A DNA stretch of 64,000 nt from Candidatus Latescibacterota bacterium (lineage in GTDB: Bacteria > Latescibacterota > CBDEFO01), in assembly GCA_965237525.1 (NCBI GenBank), contig CBDEFO010000004.1:1-64000 (forward strand). The letters run 5' to 3'. Positions 1-40,918 of the stretch are shown piece after piece (the stretch's first letter is position 1; every line of letters starts with the position of its first letter). A program made the translations under genes and the position numbers. The notes under the pieces are model-generated. The model was not told the DNA's origin. It was given only the letters and a program-made list of their open reading frames with translations, and searched no databases.

Positions 1-159
1 GATAATTCTTGCGATAAATCACTCATTCAACAGTAGGTTATCATTGTTTCTTAGAAAAATCAAGCAGAACGCTTGACAATTCCAGCGATTTTGCTTACTA
101 TTTGAAGCGTTCTGCTTGTTAATGGCAAGCTTGCAGCTGAACGAGAAAGGAAGTAGCGA

Positions 160-422
160 ATGGAAATGACTGAAAAGAAACCAGATCGACCGAACGGCGG
201 GCATGGGCCTGTCTTTACGTTCTTCGTAGATGGCAAGGAATTCCACGTCGACGAACCAAAAATTACGGCTGGAGAAATCATGGACTTAGCCAGAATTCCT
301 CGTGAGACGGGCCTGGTCCAGATCTTTGAGGACGGAAGCCAGAAGCAGCTATCGCCGACGAGGTGGTTGAACTCAAGTCGAAGGAGCACTTCAAGAAAGC
401 TCCGAGATTCAAGAGGGGTTGA
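160..422 (+). CDS. Ubiquitin-like (multi-ubiquitin/beta-grasp) protein ending in Gly; one frameshift near 352-356
   Basis: The ORF from 160 reads VFTFFVDGKEFHVDEPKITAGEIMDLA. Shifting frame at about 354 gives ADEVVELKSKEHFKKAPRFKRG-TGA (420-422). It precedes E2 and E1 genes. Confidence 0.75.
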
Positions 423-425
423 ACC

Positions 426-808
426 ATGCGAGAACGACGACAGAAGGAAATTCAGCTCGTCAAGGCGGCTCACCCCAAGCTTGAAGTCGGATCGAATCTT
501 GATTGGTTTACCCTGACGAGGCTCGTCTGCCACGAGGGTGGAGCCTGGACGCCACGGATACGCTCATCCTGATTCCGTCCGGATACCCAACAATCCCGCC
601 GGACAATTTCTATGTCGACCCGGCGCTTCGACTAAAGAACGGTCAGCAGCCGGGAGCCAGCAGCGGTCCTGTCGAACAGATCGGACGCCAGTGGCTCCAA
701 TTCTCCTACCACGTCGAAGACTGGCAGCCTCACGGTGATTACCGTCTGGGCCATAACCTCCTCACCTTCCTGGAGGGTGTCCGACATCGCCTTTCGGAGG
801 TCAACTAG
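426..808 (+). CDS. Prokaryotic E2/UBC-fold protein (E2 family E-like); one frameshift near 520-527
   Basis: ATG426 MRERRQKEIQLVKAAHPKLEVGSNLDWFTL joins ORF 503-808 (LPRGWS..LILIPSGYPTIPPDNFYV..WLQFSYH..W). The P-x-G-Y-P-x-x-P-P motif is typical of UBC folds. Confidence 0.75.
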
Positions 809-2197
809 TGGCCACGATCCGCCTTAACCAAGTCCAGTGGAGAACTATCCTGAGCACCTTTACTCGACCCCAGGGGAACACTTCGCGTTCCTGCACGCTA
901 GGTGGACGCTTTCATCCGGACAGCCTGTCTTCATAGTGACCGACATCTCCTTGATTGCAAACAGAGACGTAAGAGTCACCCCTAGCGGATGGGAAGTCGA
1001 GACCAGCGCATTGATCAACATTGTGAACAAGGCCGTGCGGTTAAGGTCAACCTTGATCGAGGCCCACAATCATAGCGGGCGCATGCCCCGACTCTCCGCG
1101 ACCGATCGGAAAGGATTTCAGGACTTTGTACCGTACGTTCTGGACTCGCTGCCTGGGCGACCCTACGGGGTGACTGTCTGGGGCGACGACACCGTCTACG
1201 GAGAATTTTTCTTCGAAGCTGGGAGAACCGGAACCATCGATAGTATTACCGCCGCAGGTGATCACCTTGCTCAGGTTGTGTCCCATAACGAGGATCCGAT
1301 CGATCCGTCTTTCTCCCGCCAAGTTGTTTGGTTTACCGAAGCTGGTCAGCGTCAGCTTGGACGCACAAGAGTCGCTGTAGTCGGCGCTGGCGGAACAGGC
1401 TCGCAGGCGGTTCAGGCACTTGTATTCATGGGTGTGCGGAACTTCCTGGTGATCGACTTCGACCTCGCGGACAGCACCAATATGAATCGCCTCGTGACAG
1501 CCACTGCAGCGGACATTGGGACCCCGAAGGTTATCCTGGCACGCCGTCTTGTCAAGAACGTCGCGCCAGCCTCGCATGTCGATGCACTTCAAGAGAATCT
1601 ACGCTGCCGACAGGCACTCGACAAGCTGAAGGGTGTCGATGTGATATTCGGGTGCGTCGACAACGACGGAGCACGCCTTATCCTGAATGAGTTGGCGCTG
1701 GCCTACCGGATTCCATACTTCGACATCGGAGTCGGGATCAATGCGTCGGACGGCACCGTCTCGGAGGCCGGAAGTCAAGTAGACGCTGTGATTCCTGGCG
1801 GCCGGTGCCTCAACTGCATGGGCTGATCGACCGTGATGAAGCAAGCTATTTTCTTGCACCTCCCGAGGAACAGGAATTTCGCCGAGATCGCGCGATACAT
1901 CGAAGGGATAGATGTACCGACTCCCTCGGTGGTCTCACTCAACGGTACGGCAGTTAACGCGCTGTTACGGAATTTGCTGTCTATGTGTCAGCTCTCCGGC
2001 GCGTGAACTACCGGACGGATCCGGATGCCCTGGGAACCGGTCGCATGTCGGCGCAGTGGACCGTGCCAACACGCGTCCTCAAGAGAGAGGGCTGCATTCA
2101 GTGTGTTGTGGCTGACAAAGGAGATGAAGCCGATATCGAACGGTATATTATTTCTCAGATACCGGAATACCTACAACCACTACAACCAAAGGAGTAA
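808..2197 (+). CDS. JAB/JAMM peptidase - ThiF/E1 adenylating enzyme fusion; several single-base frameshifts (about 850, 1822, 1890, 1960)
   Basis: GTG808 overlaps the E2 stop (TAGTG). JAMM motif GEH..EAHNHS..LSATD; E1 motifs VVGAGGTGS, DFD..STNMNR, GCVDNDGAR; zinc pairs CLNC and CIQC; ends at TAA 2197. Confidence 0.8.
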
Positions 2198-2200
2198 CAG

Positions 2201-2398
2201 ATGGGAGCCAAGCGAGACACGAACAAGTATCATTTCAAGGTCGGAAACACGATCTTTCATAGCGGGATCACGAACAACCTCGATCGTCGCGAACAGGAAC
2301 ATCAGCAGAAATGGCCCGCAGGTCACATCAAAAAAGTCGGCCGCAAAACCACGGAAGAAGCCGCGCGCCTCTGGGAGGAAGGCCAGAAGGAATCCTGA
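2201..2398 (+). CDS. Small GIY-YIG-like protein
   Basis: 65 aa with KYHF..HSGITNNLDRREQEH..EEAARLWE, matching the minimal GIY-YIG core. GGAG RBS upstream; starts 3 nt after the E1 stop. Confidence 0.55.
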   Translation: MGAKRDTNKYHFKVGNTIFHSGITNNLDRREQEHQQKWPAGHIKKVGRKTTEEAARLWEEGQKES

Positions 2399-2430
2399 GG
2401 TGAAAGCCTTCAAAATGAAGGGGGAACGCT

Positions 2431-2775
2431 ATGCCTATGAAGAACCCGCCACACCGCGGCAAGGTGGTGCGTGTGTCCTGTCTGGAGCCGCTCGGTCTCA
2501 ACGTCACCGAAGGGGCGAAAGTCCTGGGCGTCAGTCGCCAGGCACTCTCGAACCTGGTGAATTGCCACACCCGTATTTCAGCCGACATGGCAGTCCGCCT
2601 TGCGAAGGCCTTCGGTTCTACGACGGAGACCTGGATCCGGTTGCAGGCGGCCTACGACGTAGCCCAGGAGCAAGCACGCGAGGATGAGATCAACGTCGAG
2701 CGCTACGAGCCGCAACCAGCAGCCGTAGGGAGCCTGGTGATGGCGGACGACCGAGATGACGGCATCCCCACCTGA
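2431..2775 (+). CDS. higA: HigA-family HTH antitoxin
   Basis: MPMKNPPH.G..LEPLGLNVTEGAKVLGVSRQALSNLVN..ISADMAVRLAKAFGSTTETWIRLQAAYD is a typical HigA sequence. Confidence 0.85.
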   Translation: MPMKNPPHRGKVVRVSCLEPLGLNVTEGAKVLGVSRQALSNLVNCHTRISADMAVRLAKAFGSTTETWIRLQAAYDVAQEQAREDEINVERYEPQPAAVGSLVMADDRDDGIPT

Positions 2776-2969: not shown

Positions 2970-5900
2970 ATGAACAGGGAACAGAACAAGAGCATGAAGC
3001 TGGAAGATCTCCAGACTAAAACTGCGGTGCGCGGCATCCTGTCCGACGGCCTCGTCACGGTTGTCAGCGTGCAGTGGTTCGGCTCCGAAGCGCTTGAGTT
3101 GACGTACAAGACACCGACCGGAGAGGTCGCCAATGAGCTTCTGTACCGTCACGACGAAGCGCGGCTCGAGATCGTCGAAGTAGGCCGGCCATGGAGCTTC
3201 GACGGAGACGGCGCTTTGTTCCGCCTGGTCTCTGAGGCGCAGCGAATCCGCCTTGCGCATCTCTTCGACCCGGTGCTCGCCGTGAACACCTCGGTCGTCG
3301 AGCCTTTGCCCCATCAGATCACCGCGGTCTACGAATCCATGCTGCCCCGTCAGCCCCTTCGGTTTCTTCTCGCCGATGACCCGGGTGCCGGCAAGACCAT
3401 CATGGCTGGGTTGCTCATCAAGGAGTTGATCGCTCGCGGTGATCTGCAGCGGTGTCTGGTCGTCTGTCCCGGTAGTCTCGCGGAGCAATGGCAGGATGAG
3501 CTCTACCGTCGGTTCCAGTTGCCCTTCGACATCCTGACGAACGACAAGCTCGAAGCAGCCCGCACAGGCAACTGGTTCCTGGAAGCCAGTCTCGTCATTG
3601 CCCGGCTGGACAAGCTCTCCCGCAACAAGGACGTTCAGCAGAAGCTGCAAGCTCCGGATTGCCGCTGGGATCTCGTCGTGTGCGACGAGGCCCACAAGAT
3701 GTCGGCGACGTTCTTTGGTGGCGAAGTCAAGTACACGAAGCGCTACCGGCTGGGCAACTGCTGTCGAGTCTCACCCGCCATTTTCTGTTGATGACGGCCA
3801 CTCCGCACAACGGGAAAGAGGAAGACTTTCAGCTCTTCATGGCGCTCATCGACGGGATCGATTCGAGGGGCGCTTTCGCGATGGCGTTCATGTCGCCGAT
3901 GTCTCTGACCTGATGCGCCGCATGGTGAAAGAGAATCTGCTCAAGTTCGACGGCACGCCGCTATTCCCAGAGCGCATTGCGCACACGGTCCCCTACAAGC
4001 TCTCAGAAGCGGAAGCCCACCTTTACAAGGTCGTCACCGATTACGTGCGCGAGGAATTCAACCGTGCGGAGGCACTCGAGAACGACCAGCGAGCCGGCAC
4101 CGTCGGCTTTGCCCTGACGATTCTGCAGCGCCGACTCGCCTCTTCTCTGAGGCCATCTATCAGTCGTTGCGCCGCCGCCGTGAGCGGCTGGAGAGCCGGT
4201 TGCGTGAGCTCGAGGTGCTGCAGCGTGGTGGCCATGCCGCCACCGTATTTGGCGCTGGTCCGGAGCTCGACCCCGAGGATGTCGAGGATCTGGACGAGGC
4301 TCCGAGAACGAAGTCGAGGCGGCCGAGGAGGAAATTCTAGACCGGGCAACGGCGGCGCGATCAATCGCCGAGCTGAAGGCTGAGATCGGGACGCTCAAGA
4401 ATCTGGAAGGTCTTGCGCTTGAAGTGCGGCGAAGCGGCGCGGACACCAAATGGCGAGAGCTGGCAAGCCTGCTCGGTGGAATCTTCACGGCGGGAGGGAC
4501 TTCCGAGCAAATCGCAAAGGCGGACGTTCCCTACGGCGCCGGCGATATTCCCCGACCGACCTCGTCTCCGAAGCAAAAACTGGTCATTTTCACCGAGCAC
4601 CGTGATACGCTGAGTTATCTGCACAGGCGCATCACGACCCTGCTGGGACGTGAGGAGTCGGTTGTTCTGATTCACGGCGGTATGGGCCGCGAGGACCGAC
4701 TCAAGGCCCAAGAAGCCTTCCGCCACGACCCGCACGTGCAGGTGCTGCTCGCCACGGATGCGGCCGGCGAAGGCATCAACCTCCAACGCGCCCACCTGAT
4801 GGTGAATTACGATCTGCCATGGAACCCCAACCGATTGGAGCAGCGGTTCGGTCGGATTCACCGCATCGGCCAGACGGAAGTGTGTCACCTCTGGAACCTC
4901 GTCGCGGATGAAACAAGAGAGGGCGACGTCTATCGCAAGCTCCTCGACAAGCTGGAGCAGGCGCGGGAAACCCTCGGCGGGCAGGTGTTCGATGTGCTCG
5001 GCAAGCTCCCACTTCGAAGGGCGGCCCCTTCGCAAGCTCCTGATCGAGGCAATCCGCTACGGGGAACAACCGGAGGTTCGAGCGCGCCTCACGACGGCGG
5101 TCGATCATGCCCTGGACCGCGTCAGGCTCCAGGACCTGCTGGAAGAGCGCGCCCTCGCGCACGACGCCATGGACGCGAGCAGAGTGTACCGAGTACGTGA
5201 GGAAATGGAGCGGGCCGAAGCCCGCCGTCTACAACCTCACTACATCGAGTCGTTCTTTCAGGCGGCGTTTCAACGCCTGGGCGGTTCAGCCAAGCAGCGT
5301 GAGGCTAGTCGCTACGAGATCACCCACGTTCCCGCACCCGTTCGGAATCGAGATCGATTGATTGGTATTGGAGAACCGGTCCTTCCCCGGTACGAGCGCA
5401 TCGCCTTTGAGAAATCTTTGGTGGCGCCCCAAGGGCAACCGCTGGCGGCGTTTGTGTGTCCCGGGCACCCATTGCTGGATGCGGTCATCGACCTGACGCT
5501 GGAACGACACCGGGATCTCTTGAAACGGGGCGCTGTGTTGGTCGACGAGCGTGACGAGGGCAACAAGCCGCGCGTGCTTTTCTATCTTGAGCACGCGATC
5601 CAAGATGCGAGCCTGACGCGCTCGGGGGATCGTCGGATCATCTCCAAGCGCATGCTGTACGTGGAACTTGATGCGGATGGCGTAACCCGCCATGTGCAGT
5701 ATGCGCCCTATCTCGACTATCGCCCGCTCGCTGACGACGATCCCGGTCTGGAACAAATCCTCGAGCGGCCGCAGTGCGCATGGATCGACCGGGATGTGGA
5801 AAAGAAAGCGCAGGGCTACGCTGTTGCGAACGTGGTCCCGGAGCATTTGACGGAGGTGCGCGAGGCGAAGTTGGCGTTGATCACCAAGACCGAAGTAGCC

Positions 5901-6566
5901 GTAAGGGACCGTCTCACAAAGGAGATCACCTACTGGGATCATCGAGCCGAGCAACTCAAACTGCAAGAGCAGGCGGGCAAGACCGGAGCGAGGCTCAATT
6001 CAGGTGAGGCCCGCAAGCGCGCGGACACGCTGCAAACACGTCTCCAGAAGCGGCTTGAAGAACTCAAGCTCGAGGCGCAAATCTCGCCTCTGCCACCGGT
6101 AGTGCTGGGAGGATTGCTGGTCGTGCCCAAGGGGCTCATCGATGAAATGAGTGGGCGTGAATCGGCGGGCACAAGAACGGCCGTTGATACGCAGGAATCG
6201 GCCGCCCGGGCGCGCAACATCATTATGGAAGTCGAGCGGAGTCTTGGATTTGACCCGACTGACCGGGAGTTCGAGAAACTGGGGTACGACATCGAAAGCC
6301 GCGTGCCGGACACGGGCAAGCTCCGATTCATCGAGGTCAAGGGCCGGGCCGGCGGCGCGTCAACGATCACCGTCACGCGCAACGAGATTCTGTACTCACT
6401 GAACATGCCCGAGGACTTCATCCTCGGGATCGTGGAGTTCCAGGACGCCGACCGACATCAGGTCCACTACGTTCGGGAACCCTTTCAGCGGGAGCCGGAT
6501 TTTGGGGTGACGAGCGTCAACTACGATTTCGCGGAGCTGCTTGCGCGCGCGGAAGAGCCGTCATAA
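2970..6566 (+). CDS. SNF2/RapA-like helicase with C-terminal DUF3883 nuclease-like domain; several frameshifts between about 3755 and 5010
   Basis: [47 protein letters not shown] and C-terminal GYDIES..FIEVKG, spread over consecutive ORFs. Confidence 0.85.
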
Positions 6567-6591
6567 AGGGGTCACCAGAAGACAGGACAGC

Positions 6592-9500
6592 ATGAAGATC
6601 AAGAAGAAGCTGATTGAAGTCGCCTTGCCGCTGGCTGCCATCAACAAGGCCTCGGCCAGGGAAAAGTCCATCCGCCACGGACATCCCAGCACGCTACACC
6701 TCTGGTGGGCGCGTCGACCGCTGGCGGCAGTGCGGGCGGTGATTTTCGCGCAGATGGTGGATGATCCGTCCGGGTATCTGGACGTGCTGCTGTCGGACAC
6801 GAAGAAAAGGAGAGCTGCGGAGCGAGAGCTAAAGAAGCGCCTTGCGGCACATGCGGCGAAGCGGTCATTGGCCCGCGACGATGCGATCGCCGAACCTGAG
6901 CCGACGCTGGCAGAGGTCATCGCCGAGCAGGAGCGTGACCGGCTATTCGCGATTATCGAAGAGTTGGTCCTTTGGGAGAACACCACGAACGAAGAGGTGC
7001 TCGAACCGGCGCGGCGGGAGATCTGGCAGAGCTGGCGGCGGGCGTGCGCCGAAAATGCGGCCCATCCGAGAGCCGCGGAGATGTTCGATCGGCACACGCT
7101 CCCGGCTTTTCACGATCCATTTGCCGGGGGTGGAGCGCTCCCGCTGGAGGCGCAGCGGCTGGGGCTGGAAGCCCATGCCAGCGACCTGAACCCGGTGGCG
7201 GTGTTGATCAACAAGGCCATGATCGAGATCCCGCCGAAGTTTGCCGGGCAGGCGCCGGTCAATCCGGCGACCCGCCAGGAAAAGAGCCTGATCGAGCGCG
7301 AATGGAAGGGTGCCCATGGACTGGCCGAAGACGTCCGCTACTACGGCCAATGGATGCGCGACCAGGCCGAGAAGCGCATCGGGCACCTGTATCCGAAGGT
7401 CGAGGTTTCCGAGGAGATGGTGGCGGAGCGGTCCGACTTGGAACGCTACAAGGGCCGCGCGCTGACGGTGATTGCCTGGCTGTGGGCGCGGACGGTGAAG
7501 AGCCCCAACCCCGCCTTTGCCGATGTCGAGGTGCCGCTGGCGTCCACCTTCATGCTGTCAACCAAAAAGGGCAAAGAAGCGTACGTCGAGCCGGTGATCG
7601 AGGGCCGGGGGTACCGATTCACGGTGAAGGCCGGGAAGCCCAAAGATGCGGAGGCGGCAAAGCGGGGCACCAAGGCGGGAGGTAGCGGCAGTATCTTCCT
7701 CTGCCTGATGTCGGGAACGCCCATGCCGTTCGAGTACCTGCGACCCGAAGCCAAGGCAGGACGTATGGGTGCGCGCCTCATGGCCATCGTCGCGGAGGGC
7801 GACCGAGGCCGAGTCTATCTTGCGCCGAACTCAGAGCATGAAGCGGCGGCGCGCAAGGCAAAGCCGCATGACGTGCCGGATACGGATCTGCCTGCGAAGG
7901 CGCTCGGTTTTCGTGTGCAGGAATACGGCATGATCAAATGGCGCGACCTCTTCACTCCCCGCCAACTCGTGGCGCTGACGACTTTCTCCGACCTGGTGGG
8001 TGAGGCGCGTGCGCGGGTGGAGCATGACGCCATCGTTGCTGGCCTCCCCGACGACAGCACGCCTCTGCGCGATGGCGGCGCCGGCGCCAAAGCCTATGCC
8101 GAGGCGGTGGGGGTGTATTTGGGATTGGCTGTCGATAAAGTTGCGGACTATTGGTCGTCGATCTGCATTTGGAATGTGTCTCGCGAAACAATAAGCCATA
8201 CGTTCGGTCGCCAAGCGATACCCATGACGTGGGACTACGCTGAAGGGAACGTTTTCTCCAACTCAACTGGGAATTTCGCGTCACTGCTGGAGTGGATCGA
8301 GAAATTCCTGGTGGAGGCGCCCGCCACGGGGTACGGAAGCAGTTCGCAGATGGATGCCTCATCGCAGGACTGCACTCAACACAAGGTTGTCTCCACCGAT
8401 CCTCCTTACTACGACAACATCGGCTACGCCGACCTGTCGGATTTCTTCTACGTCTGGTTGCGCCGCTCTCTCCGTCCAGTCTTTCCCGACCCCTTCGCCA
8501 CAGTCGCGGTGCCCAAGACTGATGAGCTGGTGGCTGCGCCTTACCGCCACGGCGGCAAGGCCGCGGCGGAGACCTTCTTCCTCGACGGCATGACCCTGGC
8601 GCTACACCGGCTCGCGGAGCAAGCACATCCAGGGTTCCCGGTCACCATCTACTACGCCTTCAAGCAGTCGGAAACAAAAGAAGACGCCGGAACAGCTAGC
8701 ACTGGCTGGGAGACGTTCCTAGACGCTGTGATCCGGTCCGGTTTCGCGATCACCGGCACGTGGCCGATGCGCACCGAGCGGCCAACAGGCGTAAAGGTCG
8801 CCGTCAACGCGCTTGCCTCCAGCATCGTCCTGGTCTGCCGCCCCCGTCCCGCCGACGCGCCGACCGCCACGCGGCGCGAGTTCCTGACCGCCGCGCTCCG
8901 CTCTGAGCTGCCAAAGGCGCTACGTCTGCTGCAAACAGGCAACATCGCGCCCGTCGACCTTGCCCAGGCGGCCATCGGTCCCGGCATGGCCATATACACC
9001 CGCTACGCCAAGGTGCTGGACGCCGAAGGCAAGCCCCTGTCCGTACGCGAAGCGCTGGAGCTGATCACCAAACTCTCGATGAAACGCTGGTCCAACAGGA
9101 AGGCGACTTCGATTCAGACAGCCGCTGGGCCGTCGCCTGGTTCGAGCAGCACGGCTTCGATGAGGGCGAATACGGCATCGCCGAAACACTCTCCAAGGCC
9201 AAGAACACCAGCGTTGCGGGCATGGTAGAGGCGGGGATTTTGACCTCAAGAGCGGGGAAGGTCCGACTGCTGCGGCCCGAGGAACTGCCTGCCGACTGGG
9301 ACCCGACGACCGACCCGAGGCTGACCGCTTGGGAGATGGTTCATCATCTCGTACGAGCGCTGGAAACCGGCGGCGAAAGCGCCGCGTCCGAACTTGCTGC
9401 CCAGCTCGGCACCAAGGCCGAGGCGGCTCGCGAGTTGTGCTACCGCCTGTACACGCTATGCGAGCGCAAGAAACGCGCGGCGGAGGCGCTCTCCTACAAC

Positions 9501-9599
9501 AGCCTGGTGCAGAGCTGGCCCGAGATCACTCGCCTGGCGCGAGAAGATCAGAAGGCCGAAGCTGAACAGACTACCCTGTTTGAGGGTGGGGAGAACTGA
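6592..9599 (+). CDS. DUF1156-family adenine DNA methyltransferase; one frameshift near 9067
   Basis: [38 protein letters not shown] shift at about 9067 restores [20 protein letters not shown] and joins ORF 9222-9599. Confidence 0.85.
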
Positions 9600-9601
9600 A
9601 T

Positions 9602-10978
9602 ATGACATGCGAAGAAGTTGCCGCCACGCAATGGAGTCGCCACAAGGTAAGAGCTGGCTCCTATGAGTTCGACGAATCCGGAGTGCTAGATGAAGACGGG
9701 GTCAATCAGCACCGGGAGCGTATTGAGCCGTGGCTTGCGGCACTGCTTCAGGCAGAGCATCTCAATCTCCTGGTTGGGGGCGGCCTAACAACTGCAATTG
9801 CTCATCACACGTGCGTACCCGCAATTGATATGTCCGTGGACGGATTGGAGGGTGAATATAGCGAAGCCGTCCTGGCGGCAGCGGCCAAGAGTGCGAAAGT
9901 GAGCGGTCGCGAGAAACCAAACATCGAAGATGCAATTCGTGCGGCGCGTGAGTTGATCCAAGGTCTTGCGGTGTTTTCGACTGAGGAGAAGGGTGATGAT
10001 GATTTTGTCAAGAAGGCCAGGTCCCTGCATGAAGTCTGGGCCAAGGCGTTGGAGAGGAAGCTCGTGTCGTTCCTTGGCCAGGTGTTGGAGACCGAGGCCG
10101 GGATACGCTCGATGGTTGAGGGAAACACCGCGGCCGCGCAAAGGGCGCGACGCCTCCTTGGATCTTTCCTACTGACCTTCGCCAGCCGTACTGCGACGAG
10201 AGAGAGACTACATATCTTCACTACAAACTACGATCGTCTAGTCGAATTTGGATCAGATCTCCTTGGGTTGAGGGTAATCGATCGATTCGTCGGGGAACTC
10301 GAGCCTGTGTTCCGCGCTTCCCGTCTTGGGATAGACATGCACTACAACCCGCCTGGCATCCGCGGGGAGCCCAGATACCTTGAGGGTGTGGTTCGTCTGA
10401 CAAAGCTTCATGGGTCTATCGACTGGTGCCAAGTCGGTGAAGCAGGACAGAACGACCGAATAGTGCGTAAGGCGCTTCCGTTTGGTGCTGCACAAGACCA
10501 TTCGGAAGTGCCCAAGGGTGCAACTGACGGACTCATGATCTACCCGAATCCGGCGAAAGATGTCGAAACACTTGAATACCCCTATGCGGAATTGTTCCGG
10601 GATTTCGCAGCGGCCGTCTGCCAGCCGAACGCGGTTCTTGTGACATACGGATATGGATTCGGTGACGACCACATCAATCGGATCCTGCGGGATATGCTGA
10701 CGATCCCGTCGACACACCTAGCCATCCTCTCATTTGACGACGCAGGAGGAAGGATTCCCGGATTCTGCGACCGCGTTGGACGCGACGAACAAACCACGCT
10801 TCTCATCGGCCCACACTTCGGCAACCTCGCTAGGCTTGTCGATCACTATCTGCCTAAACCGGCGATTGACCGTACGACCTGGAGGATGGTGGAGCTTCTT
10901 AATAGGCGATCTCCGCGAGGGTCATTAGAAGGTACGGATGACGCGCAACCTGCTACACCGGGGGAAGCACTCATATGA
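9602..10978 (+). CDS. SIR2-like (SIR2_2) NADase-family protein
   Basis: LLVGGGL, FTTNYDRLVE, KLHGSIDW and YGYGFGDDHIN motifs. Confidence 0.85.
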   Translation: MTCEEVAATQWSRHKVRAGSYEFDESGVLDEDGVNQHRERIEPWLAALLQAEHLNLLVGGGLTTAIAHHTCVPAIDMSVDGLEGEYSEAVLAAAAKSAKVSGREKPNIEDAIRAARELIQGLAVFSTEEKGDDDFVKKARSLHEVWAKALERKLVSFLGQVLETEAGIRSMVEGNTAAAQRARRLLGSFLLTFASRTATRERLHIFTTNYDRLVEFGSDLLGLRVIDRFVGELEPVFRASRLGIDMHYNPPGIRGEPRYLEGVVRLTKLHGSIDWCQVGEAGQNDRIVRKALPFGAAQDHSEVPKGATDGLMIYPNPAKDVETLEYPYAELFRDFAAAVCQPNAVLVTYGYGFGDDHINRILRDMLTIPSTHLAILSFDDAGGRIPGFCDRVGRDEQTTLLIGPHFGNLARLVDHYLPKPAIDRTTWRMVELLNRRSPRGSLEGTDDAQPATPGEALI

Positions 10979-13110
10979 GACCACTCGTCGAGGCCCTGGG
11001 AGATCGCGCCGTCGGCGTTGTGGAGAGCGTTAACGCGAACGCCATTAGCGTGCTCGTAGACCCTTCCGCGCCACAAGCCACTGCTTTGAACACGGGGACA
11101 CCAACGGGTTTTCCAAGAATCAACGGGTACCTATTGGTTCCCAACGAATCGGGCGCGACTGTTGGCGTGATCACCTCGGTGCGCGTCGAGCGACTGCCAT
11201 ATCCGAAACGAAAGGGGATGCAGGACTTCGGTCTCATTGATTTGCCGTTCCCAGCGCGGCTAGTCACTCTGATGCCGCTCGGTACGCTTATTTCAAAGCG
11301 TCGAAGCGAGTCGGACGACCTGGGATTCAAAGTGCGAAGGGGTGTTGATGTTTTTCCATCGGTAGGCGACCCCGTGTTACTTCCGACAGACGTCCAGCTA
11401 CGCGCACTGGTTGAGGGTGAGAGCGGCGATGTCGGTGGACGTATCCAGATTGGAGTATGCCCGACAGCTGGCGGCGAGCCCGTCCACGTCGATCCGGACA
11501 AGCTATTCGGCCGGCACCTAGCCGTGCTAGGCAATACCGGGGCGGGAAAATCCTGTACGGTAGCAGGATTGGTTCGATGGTCGCTCGAAGCCGCACGAGA
11601 GGCACGTAAGAACGTCGATCCGAATGCCAGATTCATCATTCTGGACCCCAATGGTGAGTATGCTCGGGCATTCAGCGATCTTGATCCGCGTGTGTTTCAG
11701 GTGGAGAGCAGTGGCTCCGCAAGGCCACTCAAGGTACCGGCGTGGCTGTGGAATGGAGAAGAATGGTCGGCGTTTACCGGCGCTGCGCCGGGGGTGCAAC
11801 GACCGATCCTGTTTGACGCGTTGCGGCGATTGCGATCAGGGAAAATGGATGCGGACGTCGCTGAAGCTAGAGTAAGGCGCCGACTGCGGAACTACCGTAT
11901 TCGCCTGCGGATGATCCTAGACCAGGGAACGTACATGGGGTTTCCGGGCCGCAAGGATTGCGCAGTGGTATTAACAAATCTTGTCGGGGCATTCGAGGAG
12001 TTAGTGCAAGGCGGACTCGAAGGCGAATTGCAGGACCACCTGAAAACGGCAATCGAACACGCACAGGATGCGGAGCTCGCTGCACGTTCTTATGTTGATA
12101 AGCACGAACAACAACAATACAGCGATTTCGCTGATGCTCACATCGAGCGCATTCTGCATGCAGTCAAAGCTGCGGCCACTGCAGCAGGAATTCCTGACGA
12201 TCAACAAGGCATCAGCGAAGACACGCCGGTCTTTTTCCCGGTTACTGATTTGCCAGGGCTCGTAGAAGTCATTGCCGCCGACGCATCAGGTCGAGATGTT
12301 TCCCAGTTCGTCGATTCGCTCAATCTTAGAATTCGCAGCATTTTCTCCGCTGGTCCGCTCGAATCAGTCGTGAACCCAGAAGGTTCGGCTGCGTTGACGC
12401 TTGATGCCTGGCTCACGGATTACGTTGGCGGCGACCAAGCTTCAAATGGTCCGCTAGCTGTGCTGGACCTCTCGCTCGTCCCGTCCGAGGCCGTACATGT
12501 TGTAGTGGCCGTGCTAGCACGCATGGTCTTTGAGGCGGTTCAACGCTACAGAAGATTATCGGGATCGGAACTTCCCACGGTGTTGGTACTCGATGAAGCG
12601 CACACCTTCGTGCATCGAGATCTCACATCGGAGGGTGCATCACCTGCCGGTAGGACGTGCGGTCGCACGTTTGAGCGGATTGCCCGTGAGGGAAGAAAAT
12701 TCGGACTCGGATTGGTATTGGCGTCTCAACGTCCCTCGGAAATATCACCGACCGTTCTATCGCAGTGCAACACTTTCCTGTTACACCGCATCGTCAACGA
12801 TCGAGACCAAGACTTGGTGAAACGGCTCGTGCCGGATGGATTGGGTGATCTCCTTCGCGAACTGCCTAGTCTCCCTTCTAGACGGGCTATTCTTCTCGGC
12901 TGGGGAGCGCCGGCACCGCTTCTTGTGGAGGTGCGGGAGCTCCAGGATGCCCACCGCCCGCATTCGCCAGATCCGGCTTTTTGGGATGTCTGGACTGGGA
13001 CCAAAGAATGCGGAATTGACTGGTCAAAGATTTCTAAGCTCTGGGGTTCATCTCCTGAACCAGAGGGTGCAATACCAAACCCTGAAGCCCCTCACGAGAC
13101 TCAGGAGTAG
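10975..13110 (+). CDS. HerA/FtsK-family ATPase, partner of Sir2
   Basis: N-terminal barrel region, RHLAVLGNTGAGKS, LVLDEAH, RIAREGRKFG, SQRPSE. ATGA overlap with sir2. Confidence 0.9.
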   Translation: MRPLVEALGDRAVGVVESVNANAISVLVDPSAPQATALNTGTPTGFPRINGYLLVPNESGATVGVITSVRVERLPYPKRKGMQDFGLIDLPFPARLVTLMPLGTLISKRRSESDDLGFKVRRGVDVFPSVGDPVLLPTDVQLRALVEGESGDVGGRIQIGVCPTAGGEPVHVDPDKLFGRHLAVLGNTGAGKSCTVAGLVRWSLEAAREARKNVDPNARFIILDPNGEYARAFSDLDPRVFQVESSGSARPLKVPAWLWNGEEWSAFTGAAPGVQRPILFDALRRLRSGKMDADVAEARVRRRLRNYRIRLRMILDQGTYMGFPGRKDCAVVLTNLVGAFEELVQGGLEGELQDHLKTAIEHAQDAELAARSYVDKHEQQQYSDFADAHIERILHAVKAAATAAGIPDDQQGISEDTPVFFPVTDLPGLVEVIAADASGRDVSQFVDSLNLRIRSIFSAGPLESVVNPEGSAALTLDAWLTDYVGGDQASNGPLAVLDLSLVPSEAVHVVVAVLARMVFEAVQRYRRLSGSELPTVLVLDEAHTFVHRDLTSEGASPAGRTCGRTFERIAREGRKFGLGLVLASQRPSEISPTVLSQCNTFLLHRIVNDRDQDLVKRLVPDGLGDLLRELPSLPSRRAILLGWGAPAPLLVEVRELQDAHRPHSPDPAFWDVWTGTKECGIDWSKISKLWGSSPEPEGAIPNPEAPHETQE

Positions 13111-13113
13111 CGT

Positions 13114-16100
13114 ATGGCGATAACGAACCACGAACGGGTCGGCAAGGCGCTCGATCTGCTCAAAGCGGGTCTGGGGCCGTTTGTCGAACGCGAGGTCAAG
13201 GGCGCCCTGGAGTCGCGAAAATTGGACGCCCATCAGTTGCGTGGCTACGGGGAAGATCGCGTGTTGGGGAACAAGCCTGTCCCCGAGCAGGACGTGGCCG
13301 GGCTGCTCAAGCTGATGTGGGACACCTGGCACGACGTCTTTCGAGAGATTCTGGGACCGGCGGAGCGGAGTCTGGTCAGCGAGTTGCGCGGCCACCGCAA
13401 CAAGTGGGCGCACCAGGAGAGTTTTTCCAGCGATGACGCCTATCGCGCTCTGGATTCGGTGGGCCGGCTCCTTGCTGCGGTATCCGCGCCGCAGTCAGAA
13501 GAGCTCGAGAAGCGCAAGCTGGAGTTGCTGCGGGTGCGCTTCGATGAACAGACGCGGGGGGAGCGCCGCAAGCAGGCGGGAACGGCGATTGAAAGCGTTG
13601 CCGCGGCCAGCCTGAAGCCGTGGCGGGAAATCGTCACCCCCCACAGGGACGTCGCGAGCGGGCGATACCAACAAGCCGAGTTCGCCGCCGATCTCTGGCA
13701 GGTGCACCTGGGTGAAGGGACAGATGAGTATCGAGACCCCGTCGAGTTCTTTCGGCGAACGTATCTGACGGAAAGCCTGAAGGGACTGTTGGTTGGGGCC
13801 GTCCACCGTCTCCAAGGCAAAGGAGGTGATCCCGTCGTTCAGCTCCAGACGAACTTCGGCGGCGGCAAGACCCACTCCATGCTTGCCCTGTATCACCTGT
13901 TTTCCGGGACAGCCTCCGGGGAACTGGACGGGATCGACCCCGTTTTGCAGGAGGCGGAGGCAACGGAGCTTGCGCCGGTGCGCCGAGTTGTATTGGTTGG
14001 AAACAAGATCTCCCCGGGGAACCCAGTCACCAAACCGGATGGCACGGTCGTCCGAACACTCTGGGGCGAGCTGGCATGGCAACTGGGCGGCAAGAAGGCG
14101 TTCGCGCGGGTTGCGGCCGACGACGAAAAGGCGACGAGTCCAGGCGATGCACTGCGGGAACTCTTCAATGAATATGGTCCCTGCCTGGTCCTCATCGATG
14201 AGTGGGTTGGCTACGCCCGCCAGCTGCATGATCAGAGCGATCTCCCCGCCGGAGGCTTCGAAACCCAGTTCAGTTTTGCCCAGGTGCTCACGGAATCGGC
14301 CAAACTCGCCAACAACTGCCTGCTCGTGATCAGCTTGCCGGCCTCGGACACGGCCGGCCCCCCACACACCCAGGCTGATGATGTCGAGGTCGGTGGGCAA
14401 CGCGGGCGGGAGGCACTCGATCGGCTGCGGAACGTCGTCGGGCGCATCGAATCGTCCTGGCGTCCGGCCAGTGCCGAGGAAAGCTTCGAGATAGTGCGGC
14501 GACGCCTTTTCGAGCCGTTCACAGATCCTGTCCAATTCAGGGATAGGGATGTGGTCGCCCGCGCATTTGCCGAGTTCTATCGGACACAGCATCAAGAGTT
14601 CCCGCCTGAGTGTCGGGACGCGGACTACGAGAAGCGGATCAAGGCGGCCTATCCGATACACCCCGAGATCTTCGATCGCCTGTACACGGATTGGTCGACG
14701 CTGGTGAAATTCCAGCGCACGCGTGGCGTGTTGCGGTTGATGGCGGCTGTGATTCACAGCCTGTGGGAGAAAGACGACAGGAATCCGCTGATTCTGCCGG
14801 CGAACATCGCGATCGACGATCCACGCGTACAGTTCGAGCTGACCCGGTATCTCCCCGACAACTGGGTGCCGGTGATCGAGAAAGACGTGGACGGGCCCCG
14901 CTCGCTGCCGCGACGGATTGACAGCGCGGTTCCGAACCTCGGAAAGCTCCACGCGTCCAGACGCGTCGCGCGAGCGATTTATCTCGGATCCGCACCCACC
15001 GCCGATGCGGCGCATCGGGGTCTTGAGGACCGTCGCGTCAAACTCGGCTGTGTCATGCCGGGGGAGTCTCCGGCGGTCTTCGGCGATGCGCTGCGGCGAC
15101 TGGCCGGTGCGGCAACGTACCTCTACCAGGATGGTCCTCGTTACTGGTACTCCACACAGCCAACCGTCACGAAACTGGCGGAGGATCGTGCCGAGCAGTT
15201 GAAGCGCAACCTCGACAAGGGGGTGCAGGAGCTCGGTGCGCGACTCCGATCGGATCTCCGCGACGACACGGGCGACTTCACTCGCGTGCATCCTCTCCCG
15301 CAGTCCCGGCAGGATGTTCCGGATGATCTCGATGCACGACTCGTGGTGCTCGGAACCGACACGCCCTACAGCAAAGAGAAGGGAAATCCCGCAGAGACCG
15401 CGGCGCAAGCCATCCTGGAATCGAGGGGTAGCTCGCCGAGGATTTGTCGCAACACACTCGTGTTTCTGGCCGCGGACAAGACGAGGCTGCAGGATCTCGA
15501 TGAGGCGGTCCGGTGGTACCTGGCATGGGAATCGATACTCGGTGAGCGGGAACAGCTCGACCTTTCGCCTCACCAGGTCAAGCAGGCTGAAATCCAAAAG
15601 GAGGCCGCGTCCGGCACAGTTACGGCTCGGCTCCCGGAGACGTACCGGTGGCTCCTGGTTCCGGTTCAGACCCGTCCCGACGCTTCGATGGAGTGGCAGG
15701 CCATGAGGTTGTCGGGACAGCATTCGCTCGCAGCCAGGGCGAGCAAGAAGCTGAAAGGCGATGAGCTGCTGGTGACCGGCTTCGCCGCCACTCGACTACG
15801 GATGGAGCTTGATCGCGTGCCTCTCTGGCGCGGCGACCACGTGTCGATCAAACAAATCGTCGAGGATTTTGCACGATATCTCTATCTGCCACGTGTCAGC
15901 GACTCGACGGTCCTGCTGAACGCAATCCGCGACGGCATCGCCCTTCTTACCTGGGAGCAGGATGCATATGCGTTCGCGGACAGCTTTGACGATGAGGCAA
16001 AGCGATATCGGGGATTACGTGGTGGGCAAGTCGTTTCATTACTGGATACCGATGCTCCTGAATTGCTCGTCAAGGCGGATATTGCGCGTCAACAGCTCGA

Positions 16101-16461
16101 TGCCGAGAGTGCACCCCCGGCTGGCGGTGGAGAAGGCGCCGAAGCAGGGACGGGTGGAAAGATCACGGTTGCCGGCGGAAGACTGAGTCCCGGGGAGGTT
16201 CCGTCGGGCACGCCGACGCCGACGCAACCCACGCGGTTTCATGGGACCGTTGCGCTTGATTCCACGCGGGTAGGACGCGATGCGAGCAGGATTGCGGATG
16301 AGGTGATCTCGCATCTTTCCGGCCTAGTGGGAGCTAAGGTTACAGTGACTCTCGAAATAGAAGCTGAGGTGCCGTCGGGTGCCCCGGATCACGTCGTTCG
16401 CACGGTCACGGAGAACAGCCGGACACTGAAGTTCACGAGTCAGGGCTTTGAAAAAGCATAG
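13114..16461 (+). CDS. Swt1-like HEPN + DUF499 AAA+ ATPase
   Basis: N-terminal RNKWAH (Rx4H), LKPWREIVTPHRDV, LQTNFGGGKTH, LIDEW and FQRTRGVLR. Confidence 0.85.
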   Translation: MAITNHERVGKALDLLKAGLGPFVEREVKGALESRKLDAHQLRGYGEDRVLGNKPVPEQDVAGLLKLMWDTWHDVFREILGPAERSLVSELRGHRNKWAHQESFSSDDAYRALDSVGRLLAAVSAPQSEELEKRKLELLRVRFDEQTRGERRKQAGTAIESVAAASLKPWREIVTPHRDVASGRYQQAEFAADLWQVHLGEGTDEYRDPVEFFRRTYLTESLKGLLVGAVHRLQGKGGDPVVQLQTNFGGGKTHSMLALYHLFSGTASGELDGIDPVLQEAEATELAPVRRVVLVGNKISPGNPVTKPDGTVVRTLWGELAWQLGGKKAFARVAADDEKATSPGDALRELFNEYGPCLVLIDEWVGYARQLHDQSDLPAGGFETQFSFAQVLTESAKLANNCLLVISLPASDTAGPPHTQADDVEVGGQRGREALDRLRNVVGRIESSWRPASAEESFEIVRRRLFEPFTDPVQFRDRDVVARAFAEFYRTQHQEFPPECRDADYEKRIKAAYPIHPEIFDRLYTDWSTLVKFQRTRGVLRLMAAVIHSLWEKDDRNPLILPANIAIDDPRVQFELTRYLPDNWVPVIEKDVDGPRSLPRRIDSAVPNLGKLHASRRVARAIYLGSAPTADAAHRGLEDRRVKLGCVMPGESPAVFGDALRRLAGAATYLYQDGPRYWYSTQPTVTKLAEDRAEQLKRNLDKGVQELGARLRSDLRDDTGDFTRVHPLPQSRQDVPDDLDARLVVLGTDTPYSKEKGNPAETAAQAILESRGSSPRICRNTLVFLAADKTRLQDLDEAVRWYLAWESILGEREQLDLSPHQVKQAEIQKEAASGTVTARLPETYRWLLVPVQTRPDASMEWQAMRLSGQHSLAARASKKLKGDELLVTGFAATRLRMELDRVPLWRGDHVSIKQIVEDFARYLYLPRVSDSTVLLNAIRDGIALLTWEQDAYAFADSFDDEAKRYRGLRGGQVVSLLDTDAPELLVKADIARQQLDAESAPPAGGGEGAEAGTGGKITVAGGRLSPGEVPSGTPTPTQPTRFHGTVALDSTRVGRDASRIADEVISHLSGLVGAKVTVTLEIEAEVPSGAPDHVVRTVTENSRTLKFTSQGFEKA

Positions 16462-35147: not shown

Positions 35148-36666
35148 AAGCCTTGTGAAAAACCCTTAGATTCAGAAAGTAGTATAGAACAAGCATTGAT
35201 AAAGCAGTTCCGATGTATTATATTATGTTATTGATAATATTATACATGGAGGAAACAATGACCCCACAAAAGCAGGAACAGACAAATCCGATGTTTCACT
35301 ATTTTCAGATGGAGGATTTAGTTCCCGAGGATCATATCCTTCGTCAGATTGATGAGGCAGTTGATTTTTCATTTGTACGAGACGTTGTATCAGATTGTTA
35401 TTGCCCTGACAATGGCAGACCCGGTATTGATCCTGAATTAGTTGTTCGAATGATCCTTATTGGCTATCTGTATAATTTGAGTGAGAATCGGCTCTGTCAG
35501 GAAGTGGGGATGCATGCGGCATATCGGTTGTTTTGTCATCAGACATTTGATGATGCGGTTCCGGATAGGAGCACGATCAACAAGCTTCGCAATCACAAGT
35601 GGGCATCCAGTGGGTTGTTTGAACGGATAATGCGTCAGGTAGTCCAGTGTTGCATAGATGTCGGTGTTGTGAGCGGTAAACACCTTAGTGTCGACGGCAC
35701 TCAGATACAAGCTGATGCTTCAGTGAAAAGTATTGAGCCGATAGAACCCCCTGTTTCTCTTGATGATTATCTCAAGGGAATCGGTTTTGAAGGTGATAAG
35801 ACAAAGGGTAGGTCCGGGCATCCTCAGGATAAAGACTTTCATGGTGAAAAGTGGACGAACCAAACACACCGTTCGACTACAGACCCCGACGCGCGCTTAT
35901 ACAGCAAATCGAAGGGCAAAGGGGCTTTTCTCTCGTTTATGGGCCATGATCTGATCGACACAAAAAGCAGAGTAATCCTTGAGACTCAGGGCACGCAGGC
36001 GACAGGGACAGCAGAGCCCGAAAGTGCCCTTAAGATGGTAGATGACCTTGAAACATACACCATGCCCAAAGACATTCAGACACTTAGTGCCGATACCGGT
36101 TACGGTTCTGGTAATTTTATCGCTGATGTACTTGACCGGGGAATCATACCCCATATTCCTCTGCGAGCCGATGAGAAGATTGAACCGATTCCTACATGGA
36201 AAAACAAGACAAATTCAGCACATATTCAGGCCGAACGGGATAGAAAAGTGCGAGAGGCGAAAGCCAGAAATCATGCACGGTCTATCTCATTAACAGCTGA
36301 CTACAAACTCTCCCGGAGACTCCGTAAACGCAGTGAACATATCTTTGCTGAAGCCAGGCAACAACACGGTATGGGACGAGCCCGTTATAGAGGACCAGCC
36401 TCACTGAATGAACAGTTGAATCTTGTTGCAACAGTACAGAATCTCAAGAGGCTTGTATCTTTCATAAGAAGGGGGAAAGCGTCTATGTGTGCCCTGTCTG
36501 TCAAAGACAGTGCATCCTGTTCTTCAAACAGCTCCTATTCCTTGCTGACCAGAACTCTGATAAGACTATTTTGCTTATTCCACAGCAAAACGATACGATA
36601 TGCTACTCTTTGACCCATAATCGGCGCTTCAGACGCTGCCTGGGACATAACTATTTCACAAGGCTT
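35148..36666 (+). mobile_element. IS1182-family IS, copy 1 (transposase 35213-36613), flanked by CTAA duplication
   Basis: Terminal IR AAGCCTTGTGAAA; transposase motifs LVPEDHILR..GRPGIDP..VDGT..TTDPDA..ADTGY..EHIFAE. Confidence 0.9.
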
Positions 36667-36937
36667 CTAAATATCAATAACTTTACTATGCCGAACCATT
36701 CAGCCTACATTCTGACCGAAAAGACGTGTAAAACGCCTGTTAAGTGAAAATACTTTTGTTCTGTCTCTACAAACAGATATAATTATCGCGAGCGTGACGG
36801 ATAAGACAAGTACACGCACCAAATGGAAATAGCAACTATTAGCAGTGAAAGCAACGGACTTGAGCCTGATCAGTTTCATAAGAGTAGGGAAACCTTAAAA
36901 AGGTAAAGAGAAGTTCTTCAAATTTGGGGGAGAACAC

Positions 36938-38809: not shown

Positions 38810-39017
38810 CCTGAACTCGAACTGGAGGAAGCTATCGCTTGAATTAAGAATCTGTCAAGGGGCTCGGCACGACTCGACTTAAGGCGCGTGGCGCGCGGGT
38901 CCCCAGCAGATATACGAATAACGGCGATGCAGACTATGTGAGGTCTTACAGCCGTGGAGTATGACATAGATTCAAAAATAGCTACATAACTTCGGAAGTT
39001 TTTTTGTCTCGTATTAG

Positions 39018-40536
39018 AAGCCTTGTGAAATAGTTATGTCCCAGGCAGCGTCTGAAGCGCCGATTATGGGTCAAAGAGTAGCATATCGTATCGTTTTGCT
39101 GTGGAATAAGCAAAATAGTCTTATCAGAGTTCTGGTCAGCAAGGAACAGGAGCTGTTTGAAGAACAGGATGCACTGTCTTTGACAGACAGGGCACACATA
39201 GACGCTTTCCCCCTTCTTATGAAAGATACAAGCCTCTTGAGATTCTGTACTGTTGCAACAAGATTCAACTGTTCATTCAGTGAGGCTGGTCCTCTGTAAC
39301 GGGCTCGTCCCATACCGTGTTGTTGCCTGGCTTCAGCAAAGATATGTTCACTGCGTTTACGGAGTCTCCGGGAGAGTTTGTAGTCAGCTGTTAATGAGAT
39401 AGACCGTGCATGATTTCTGGCTTTCGCCTCTCGCACTTTTCTATCCCGTTCGGCCTGAATATGTGCTGGATTTGTCTTGTTTTTCCATGTAGGAATCGGT
39501 TCAATCTTCTCATCGGCTCGCAGAGGAATATGGGGTATGATTCCCCGGTCAAGTACATCAGCGATAAAATTACCAGAACCGTAACCGGTATCGGCACTAA
39601 GTGTCTGAATGTCTTTGGGCATGGTGTATGTTTCAAGGTCATCTACCATCTTAAGGGCACTTTCGGGCTCTGCTGTCCCTGTCGCCTGCGTGCCCTGAGT
39701 CTCAAGGATTACTCTGCTTTTTGTGTCGATCAGATCATGGCCCATAAACGAGAGAAAAGCCCCTTTGCCCTTCGATTTGCTGTATAAGCGCGCGTCGGGG
39801 TCTGTAGTCGAACGGTGTGTTTGGTTCGTCCACTTTTCACCATGAAAGTCTTTATCCTGAGGATGCCCGGACCTACCCTTTGTCTTATCACCTTCAAAAC
39901 CGATTCCCTTGAGATAATCATCAAGAGAAACAGGGGGTTCTATCGGCTCAATACTTTTCACTGAAGCATCAGCTTGTATCTGAGTGCCGTCGACACTAAG
40001 GTGTTTACCGCTCACAAGACCGACATCTATGCAACACTGGACTACCTGACGCATTATCCGTTCAAACAACCCACTGGATGCCCACTTGTGATTGCGAAGC
40101 TTGTTGATCGTGCTCCTATCCGGAACCGCATCATCAAATGTCTGATGACAAAACAACCGATATGCCGCATGCATCCCCACTTCCTGACAGAGCCGATTCT
40201 CACTCAAATTATACAGATAGCCAATAAGGATCATTCGAACAACTAATTCAGGATCAATACCGGGTCTGCCATTGTCAGGGCAATAACAATCTGATACAAC
40301 GTCTCGTACAAATGAAAAATCAACTGCCTCATCAATCTGACGAAGGATATGATCCTCGGGAACTAAATCCTCCATCTGAAAATAGTGAAACATCGGATTT
40401 GTCTGTTCCTGCTTTTGTGGGGTCATTGTTTCCTCCATGTATAATATTATCAATAACATAATATAATACATCGGAGCTGCTTTATCAATGCTTGTTTTAT
40501 ACTATTTTCTGAATCTAAGGGTTTTTCACAAGGCTT
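39018..40536 (-). mobile_element. IS1182-family IS, copy 2 (transposase 39071-40471)
   Basis: Near-identical to copy 1 with the same IRs; flanks TTAG / TTAA. Confidence 0.9.
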
Positions 40537-40760
40537 TTAAAGTGCGGAAACTATCGTTCTTTATCCACAATTTTCAGGATGCAGATGATCTTGACCTTGA
40601 GAGGATAGAGATGTGTTCTTTCCACTGCGCCACTTCCGATGGGTCTGTCTCTATGTGTCTTCACAATGCCAAAAGGGACGATTTCATATTGCCCCATGTA
40701 GAACCGATGTCGAGAAACACAGGAGGAGAACGATGGCAAAGTACAGAGTTGGGATTGTAG
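40537..40760 (+). pseudogene. C-terminal remnant of a radical SAM protein, cut by the IS
   Basis: KVRKLSFFIHNFQDADDLDLERIEMCSFHCAT..SMCLHN resembles the C-terminal FQD..C..C segment of 36938-38809. Confidence 0.55.
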
Positions 40761-40918
40761 GTTGCACAGGCATTGCGGCACGCAGGAGAGAAGACGGTCT
40801 TAATCTCCCGTTAGGAGAAGAGATGCCTGGTTCTCACGCCGCGGCGCATGCTATTGAGCCTTCCACCCAGGTTGTGGCAGTATGCGATATTCTGCAAAGA
40901 CAGGAAATACGAGGGTAG
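40733..40918 (+). pseudogene. Gfo/Idh/MocA oxidoreductase N-terminal fragment
   Basis: AGGAGG RBS; MAKYRVGIVGCTGIA..HAAA..VVAVCDI followed by a premature stop. Confidence 0.6.

Follow-up and report, generated by a model that had tools for sequence, protein, structure and literature searches.

A Type I Bub-like conjugation operon that lacks BubE, likely disabled in both assembled copies, in a Candidatus Latescibacterota genome

RESULTS

A three-gene Ubl-E2-JAB/E1 operon at the start of a contig

A three-gene operon encoding a ubiquitin-like protein (Ubl), an E2, and a JAB peptidase fused to an E1 is found at the start of contig C4 in a Candidatus Latescibacterota genome (4.6 Mb, 8 contigs). 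It belongs to a widespread Type I Bub-like branch without BubE; what is new is that this branch fails the published membership feature, possession of bubE, though it matches Type I Bub otherwise. The stretch of DNA analyzed, called the window, comprises the first 64,000 nucleotides of C4. The features discussed below are as follows (positions are those of the window).

1 to 26, minus strand: start of the capH coding sequence (HTH repressor); the remainder, off the contig start, and capP are read on contig C8
61 to 118: sigma-70-type promoter-like site, TTGACA at 73 to 78, a 17-nt spacer, and TACTAT at 96 to 101; 10 of 12 consensus positions
160 to 422, plus strand: BubA-like Ubl, 87 aa, single beta-grasp domain (Multi_ubiq, E = 8.7e-9 in the C8 copy)
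426 to 808, plus strand: BubB-like E2, 127 codons, no Cys (Prok-E2_E, E = 6e-15)
808 to 2197, plus strand: BubCD-like JAB peptidase-E1 fusion, 463 aa (ThiF, E = 3.5e-37)
2201 to 2398, plus strand: stand-alone GIY-YIG-like protein, 65 aa (Pfam GIY-YIG, E = 0.068, under the cut-off)
2431 to 2775, plus strand: HigA-family antitoxin, island context (TIGR02607, E = 2.5e-26, over the cut-off)
2970 to 16461, plus strand: Hma and SIR2-HerA island context (PADLOC)
2970 to 6566 and 6541 to 9599, plus strand: HmaA and HmaB, both frameshifted in the window (PADLOC)
9602 to 10978, 10975 to 13110, and 13114 to 16461, plus strand: SIR2, HerA, and HmaC (PADLOC)

The original prediction had placed three tightly coupled genes here, broken by frameshifts into about seven fragments. 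The coupling is as described: pieces matching the description appear in the three-frame translation, the E2 start codon lies 3 nt past the Ubl stop, and the E2 stop overlaps the GTG start of JAB-E1 at 808. The number of fragments is not, as there are six breaks and nine pieces. The HMM check that had been proposed recovered the expected domains, Multi_ubiq at 160 to 351, Prok-E2_E at 503 to 805, and ThiF within 837 to 1823. The Ubl ends in APRFKRG followed by the stop codon, leaving a free Gly; both predicted CxxC pairs were located in the E1 (1806 to 1817 and 2093 to 2104), where they likely bind a structural Zn; and the GIY-YIG-like gene does begin 3 nt downstream of the E1 stop. A second copy of the operon, on contig C8, encodes without any editing an unbroken 87-aa Ubl with a terminal Gly and a 463-aa JAB-E1.

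The genome contains a tRNA-Sec gene (G000:C8:1922139-1922236), and a hidden Ubl-E2 fusion produced by TGA read-through was considered and rejected: the Ubl stop codons of relatives are divided between TGA (21), TAA (19), and TAG (17) (n = 57), and only 20 of 50 junctions are in frame.

The three proteins resemble BubA, BubB, and BubCD

In Type I Bub, the Ubl is adenylated and then passed along through Tyr and Ser oxyesters, and BubE strips the conjugates, as PMC11601596 describes. Among PDB entries, JAB-E1 is matched best by Citrobacter BubCD (E = 7.6e-24), with MoeB/ThiF behind at 8e-13. The RGY motif aligns with that of BubCD, which sets Tyr364 opposite Y370, the catalytic residue of BubCD (PMC11601596). 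An AF2 model of JAB-E1 (pLDDT 89, pTM 0.90) matched BubCD over its full length in Foldseek (E = 3.7e-35, TM 0.71). The JAB active-site residues are E24/H87/H89/S97/D100; the E1 is a single adenylation (ThiF-like) domain with GxGG, R228, the two CxxC pairs, and the crossover-loop Tyr364.

The best PDB match of the E2 is BubB (profile E = 5e-12), with Ser, His, and Asp aligned; the catalytic codons are Asp at 602 to 604, Ser at 704 to 706, and His at 710 to 712, and Ser94 aligns with BubB S333. Sequence profiles support a UBC fold for this protein. The Ubl gave a profile match to 9d59 (E = 4e-14), and its AF2 model matches the multi-ubiquitin (BubA) structures of Citrobacter and E. coli. The beta-grasp and E1 folds expected of the Ubl and JAB-E1 are therefore borne out by the models, and in folds, catalytic residues, and regulators the operon matches Type I Bub, in agreement with its original description as Bub-like. 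Judging from these alignments, the chemistry is likely Tyr/Ser rather than Cys, a point absent from the earlier description. The operon is not Bil, because Bil uses Cys; neither the E1 nor the E2 had a Bil chain among its best PDB matches.

Related loci are found across bacteria and in archaeal-titled records

We collected 100 related loci by similarity to the query, 20 from genomes and the best 80 of 85 from metagenomes. Their record titles name Chloroflexota, Planctomycetota, Marinimicrobia, Nitrospirae, and Verrucomicrobiota, and three are archaeal (L007, L014, and L020); no carrier was found among the viral contigs searched. Ubl and E2 are split in 67 of the 72 loci that have both, and fused in 5. 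The 63 nonredundant complete architectures comprise 36 with the order Ubl|E2|JAB-E1, 23 with Ubl|E2|JAB|E1, and 4 with Ubl-E2|JAB|E1, so that in 27 the JAB is encoded apart from the E1.

The residues assigned above are well kept. A terminal Gly, the conservation of which had been named as a point on which the prediction could fail, is present in 50 of 57 distinct stand-alone Ubls; 5 more carry Gly and a short tail, and 2 bear RG and a tail. The E1 Tyr is found in 84 of 84 relatives (70 in the column and 14 one column away) and the adenylation Arg in 87 of 88. In the JAB, the counts are 71/74 for E, 77/77 and 76/77 for the two H, 78/78 for S, and 79/79 for D. In the E2, Ser is present in 66 of 71 (Cys in the other 5), His in 56 of 71, and Asp in 53 of 68.

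Cys-column E2s beside Tyr-keeping E1s were seen at L014:5130-5768 (a Methanocella record), L017:5459-5875, L019:5479-5874, L077:3193-3810, L088:3129-3764, and L104:2758-3225 (-). Three of these six E2s have a fused N-terminal region resembling a divergent Ubl. From their residues, such loci could possibly run a mixed oxyester/thioester cascade.

BubE is absent from the genome and from the related loci

The BubE family (PF20137; DUF6527) had no match above the cut-off in this genome, nor in any of the 19 genomes behind the genome loci, which are mostly MAGs of unstated completeness. As a control, PF20137 was present in three of six genomes, namely, the two with BubE-bearing loci and G055. We also examined 15 of 70 plasmid records, of which 12 carry BubE and 3 do not in the stretch examined; in four of the 12, BubE lies behind a phosphotransferase, about 1.5 kb downstream. 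That phosphotransferase gene sits between E1 and BubE in the plasmid Bub operons L111, L112, L113, and L125. A profile built from ten plasmid BubEs recovered 10 of 10 held-out members at E <= 3.8e-26; applied to the 100 related loci it found BubE in none, and it found none in this genome.

At least 2.5 kb of downstream sequence is available for 38 nonredundant loci among the 100. No conserved replacement for BubE was found within 2.5 kb of 92 loci: no neighbor recurs beyond near-identical loci, save IrrE-like regulators, and a Pfam scan of 22 picked neighbors returned unrelated families or none.

Phylogeny separates the BubE-bearing forms from the lineage of the window. In an E1 tree of 45 sequences, all 14 BubE-bearing E1s fall in one clade (UFBoot 93), which also takes in three loci in which BubE was not found; in a tree of 100 sequences the BubE-bearing group stands apart from the window's lineage (SH 0.956). 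Midpoint rooting makes the BubE-less forms one clade, whereas a single partial MoeB outgroup, in a shortened tree search, makes them a basal grade, and the root is thus uncertain. Retention of the CxxC Zn site was discarded as a marker of the branch, since 9 of 14 BubE-bearing E1s keep it too.

The published Bub catalogue, Table S1 of PMC11601596, was seeded on DUF6527 and so could not contain a BubE-less branch. Our literature searches listed no description of such a branch, although the journal version of the Bub paper (Nat Struct Mol Biol 2026) may describe it.

Predicted binding of the Ubl C terminus by the JAB domain

A model of the JAB-Ubl complex scored 0.87, against 0.00 for the best control; at least 98% of contacts were shared between runs, the partner pLDDT was 90 or more, and Ubl residues 81 to 87 contact the five active-site residues E24/H87/H89/S97/D100. 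The score mark is reached by 116 of 157 solved pairs and 2 of 215 mismatched pairs. A similar complex, BilC-BilA, has already been solved, so the pass may reflect that likeness. With BubE absent and the JAB predicted to bind the Ubl C terminus, the JAB may be the sole deconjugase of the branch; that it is a deconjugase we rate slightly better than even.

It is also possible, though we regard it as the less likely case, that conjugation proceeds by the same Tyr/Ser route while the JAB only matures or proofreads the Ubl, in which case the tag would be effectively irreversible and control purely transcriptional, through CapH/CapP. Wild-type Citrobacter BubCD left conjugates to accumulate with its JAB intact, and its authors take the view that this JAB mainly processes the precursor (PMC11601596, Discussion). 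Substrates for processing exist among the relatives, in the five Ubls with a tail past the Gly, the two ending in RG and a tail, and the five loci with Ubl-E2 fusions, and repeated loss-of-function alleles (below) would fit a costly irreversible system. Against this stands the JAB active site, nearly invariant although 50 of 57 Ubls require no processing, and the related JAB BilC cleaves conjugates (PMC10557695). A free Gly by itself gives the JAB no new job, since BubE-bearing operons too can have a Gly-ended stand-alone Ubl and a JAB (L112, L119, and L125).

Five frameshifts are assembly errors and a sixth is probably real

The second haplotype lies at the start of C8 and is 98.5% identical over window positions 1 to 2413, with six single-base gaps; window position 1 corresponds to C8:20557. 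Both were compared with six public runs, X1 to X6, as assembled contigs rather than raw reads, with only small coverage from X6. Single bases are missing in the window after position 356 in the Ubl (filled in C8, X1, X2, and X3), after 526 in the E2, and after 854, about 1822, and 1959 in JAB-E1. C8 supplies the missing base at all five places, as do the near-identical contigs from each run with coverage there, so we attribute these five of the six frameshifts to assembly error.

The expectation that the frames could be repaired thus holds for five breaks but not for the sixth, an extra base at 1893, which is probably a real lesion. X1 and X3, which come from one sample, have it, as does X5, from another study, in a single 151-nt piece at depth 2; C8, X2, and X4 do not. 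The insertion shifts the frame one codon ahead of Tyr364 (codon 1896 to 1898) and results in a stop at 1955 to 1957, which removes Tyr364 and the C terminus of JAB-E1.

The E2 is affected in the other haplotype. Codon 75 (window position 647) is an in-frame TAG in C8, X1, X2, and X3 and CAG in the window and X5; in X4, the E1 is open and the E2 lies outside its coverage. Pyrrolysine at this codon was rejected, as no PylS scored above the cut-off in the genome, where TAG is an ordinary stop that ends 664 of 2,023 long open frames. Given the 1893 shift, the E2 TAG, the lack of PylS, and the normal use of TAG, no fully intact operon could be demonstrated among the window, C8, and the covering runs, and both copies in the genome are likely disabled, the C4 haplotype by the loss of Tyr364 and C8 by the E2 stop. 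JAB-E1 differs between the haplotypes by 13 nonsynonymous and 7 synonymous codon changes, compared with 307 and 448 in five neighboring island genes (p = 0.04); the ratio would fit relaxed selection, with the caution that the counts are low and that assembly error may explain a few of the 13. The original plan to repair the frames and express the operon overlooks an apparently real loss-of-function change in each assembled copy, and a plain frame repair would yield a set of genes found intact in neither assembled haplotype.

We considered whether the window copy might be fully functional, either because all six breaks are artifacts or because recoding gets past both the 1893 shift and the amber codon. 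The start of the contig is error-rich, since C8 carries an intact 1,197-aa HmaA, and HmaA, HmaB, and HmaC each differ from C8 through single-base indels; moreover, the 1893 base is missing from C8, X2, and X4 and the E2 is open in X5 and the window, which leaves room for an intact recombinant. Set against this, X1 and X3 correct the neighboring errors yet keep the 1893 base (3 gaps versus 4 in X2), the amber codon falls at a position that varies among relatives (Gln in 11 of 70), and the PylS, TAG, and codon-change results above all speak for inactivation. We therefore think a functional window copy quite improbable.

In X1, X2, and X3, a second Ubl-E2 copy, about 83% identical, was seen over window positions 386 to 733 in the same samples; in X2 and X3 it is deeper than the near-identical one. 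The island itself is assembled twice (G000:C4:1-15584 and C8:1-20557), with identity of 81 to 98% by segment. About 750 bases that follow the GIY-YIG gene in C8 have no counterpart in C4, and neither do two C8 genes, of 904 and 427 aa, that lie between hmaA and hmaB.

Regulators, a promoter-like site, and the surrounding island

On C8 the operon is preceded by divergent capH (L021:7533-7880; PADLOC E = 5e-8), the start of which corresponds to window position 26, and capP (L021:7933-8796; E = 1.2e-20). The promoter-like site at 61 to 118 is flanked by a perfect 14-nt inverted repeat with arms at 61 to 74 and 105 to 118, which is a plausible candidate for a CapH operator pair; a promoter scan, run on the C8 copy, found 2 sites where 0.9 were expected. 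Among 39 related loci with enough upstream sequence, 20 have an IrrE-like gene upstream and 19 have no regulator.

The operon had been placed at the head of a defense island, but its position is that of the contig start: C8 continues beyond it through capH and capP to the far end of the island (L021:8933-11929), where a stand-alone pPIWI-associating nuclease (PF18165), a WCX remnant, and a tyrosine integrase are located. In both haplotypes a SIR2-HerA pair (window 9602 to 13110) is nested between the hmaB and hmaC genes of Hma. A complete congener lacks the operon and island at the same site, its flanking genes being about 850 bp apart, and we conclude that the island, about 21 kb in all, was inserted as a whole. 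A tRNA attachment site was discounted: no tRNA or Rfam RNA was found at the island end, and an 11-nt repeat at both ends reaches only E = 0.09. From the context of CapH/CapP, Hma, and SIR2-HerA, the role of the operon is probably anti-phage or stress defense. According to the Discussion of PMC11601596 and to PMC13373217, phage protection has not been demonstrated for any Bub operon, and PMC11601596 reports that Bub operons gave E. coli no phage protection.

The GIY-YIG-like gene had been suggested as a possible target of conjugation, a suggestion that found no support. Its homologue occurs in none of the 100 related loci, which speaks against a conserved target, and no gene downstream of the operon recurs beyond near-identical loci. 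The ESM Atlas places the 65-aa protein in GIY-YIG clusters (0.98). As a member of a small stand-alone family with no homologue in the 100 loci, the gene is probably a passenger rather than a conserved part of the operon. In L002, a different small ORF is GIY-YIG-like by eye and has no Pfam match. Between the haplotypes (window 2201 to 2398 and L021:5157-5354), the gene differs by 8 nonsynonymous and 0 synonymous codons (p = 0.0008 versus neighboring genes), and the window alleles are backed by runs at several sites; diversifying selection or recombination with paralogues could account for this divergence.

Farther along the window, three near-identical 466-aa transposase-like ORFs lie within 8 kb (35213 to 43494), and two related long repeat proteins, TPR-like by eye, are found at 47927 to 48934 and 50573 to 52021, each followed by related peptidase-like fragments.

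DISCUSSION

A probable cysteine-free conjugation route, possibly with the JAB in place of BubE

We consider it probable that an intact version of this three-gene operon attaches its Ubl to proteins in the cysteine-free manner of Type I Bub, with the JAB predicted to take the place of BubE, and that the local copy is inactive. CapH would repress the promoter at 73 to 101 and CapP would release it after DNA damage; both genes are on C8, and the mechanism is taken from the Cap papers. The E1 would use ATP to adenylate the Ubl Gly, as its motifs and fold suggest. Tyr364 would then take the Ubl as an oxyester and hand it over to Ser94 of the E2, both residues being conserved and aligned; this Tyr/Ser oxyester chemistry is demonstrated for Citrobacter and E. 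coli Bub only. Target lysines would receive the Ubl from the E2 with no E3 involved, and the JAB would cut away the tails or fusions seen in relatives and free targets of the tag.

A sulfur-relay or tRNA/cofactor-modifying kit of the ThiF/MoeB type, with the Ubl as a sulfur carrier and no protein tagging, would account for the two Zn CxxC pairs, the matches to ThiF/MoeB/UbaA models, and the many loci without defense regulators, but it is very improbable, for those matches are all far under the cut-off, BubCD beats ThiF/MoeB by about 11 orders of magnitude in the sequence comparison and by 19 in the structural one, the operon holds a conserved E2, no sulfur-pathway neighbor recurs, and the genome has a separate MoeB-like gene.

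A broader and more speculative proposal can also be made, which we think unlikely. The BubE-less kit would be the ancestral, minimal cysteine-free ubiquitination system of bacteria and archaea, in which one JAB both matures and erases and to which BubE was added later in one lineage; the loci pairing a Tyr-E1 with a Cys-E2 (L014, L017, L019, L077, L088, and L104) would represent half-way chemistry, and two independent knock-outs in co-occurring haplotypes would mean that the active system costs its host. Were such a cost real, endogenous targets would be findable.

A three-gene version without BubE, a protein described as aggregation-prone and weakly active in vitro, offers an easier system for finding targets. 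Its single-domain, free-Gly Ubl also suits the question of whether the JAB can reverse tagging. Since the copy studied here is probably dead, it is less useful as a reagent, and tests would be better made on intact relatives.

Comparison with known systems

The row 6e operons of Iyer, Burroughs, and Aravind (2006; PMC1779556) share with this operon a Ub-like protein, a Cys-less E2-like protein, and a JAB+E1 fusion. They have a poly-Ubl and a metal-binding protein Y, which we read as BubE, whereas in the BubE-less branch Y is absent and the Ubls are mostly single.

Type I/II Bil (BilABCD), as described by Chambers et al. (PMC10557695), has in common with it the Ubl-E2-JAB-E1 order, a JAB as sole peptidase, CapH/CapP upstream, and a Gly that is sometimes followed by a tail. 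Bil has a catalytic Cys in both E1 and E2 and an E1 of the IAD-AAD-CYS type; here, the E2 has no Cys and the E1 has a single adenylation domain with a Tyr.

The best-ranked plasmid relatives are the kinase-carrying Type I Bub operons of Deinococcus, Rhizobium, Bradyrhizobium, and Mesorhizobium. They share a single-domain stand-alone Ubl, a Ser/His E2, and a JAB-E1 with CxxC pairs, and they add a phosphotransferase and BubE, neither of which was found in the 100 loci or in this genome.

The reference system is the Type I Bub of Citrobacter sp. RHBSTW-00271, with BubAB, BubCD, and BubE (6E.1/DUF6527; PDB 9EA4, 9EAE, and 9EAV; Ye, Gong, Chambers, and Corbett, PMC11601596). That paper says that all Bub operons possess bubE, and none is present here; the distinct E1 lineage, the archaeal-titled records, the lesioned local copies, and the frequent separation of JAB and E1 (27 of 63 loci) are further differences. 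Citrobacter Bub has a Ubl-E2 fusion (BubAB), while Ubl and E2 are split here, but Table S1 of the same paper includes at least 31 rows of split Type I operons, so the fusion is not strictly defining and the split, being already catalogued, is not a novelty. In common with Type I Bub, as that paper describes it, are the order Ubl-E2-JAB/E1, a Multi_ubiq Ubl with a conserved C-terminal Gly, a Prok-E2_E E2 with Ser/His/Asp and no Cys, a JAB fused N-terminally to the E1 with an E/H/H/D active site, a crossover Tyr instead of Cys (kept on C8 but lost from the window allele through the 1893 shift), and a setting in a mobile island with CapH/CapP upstream.
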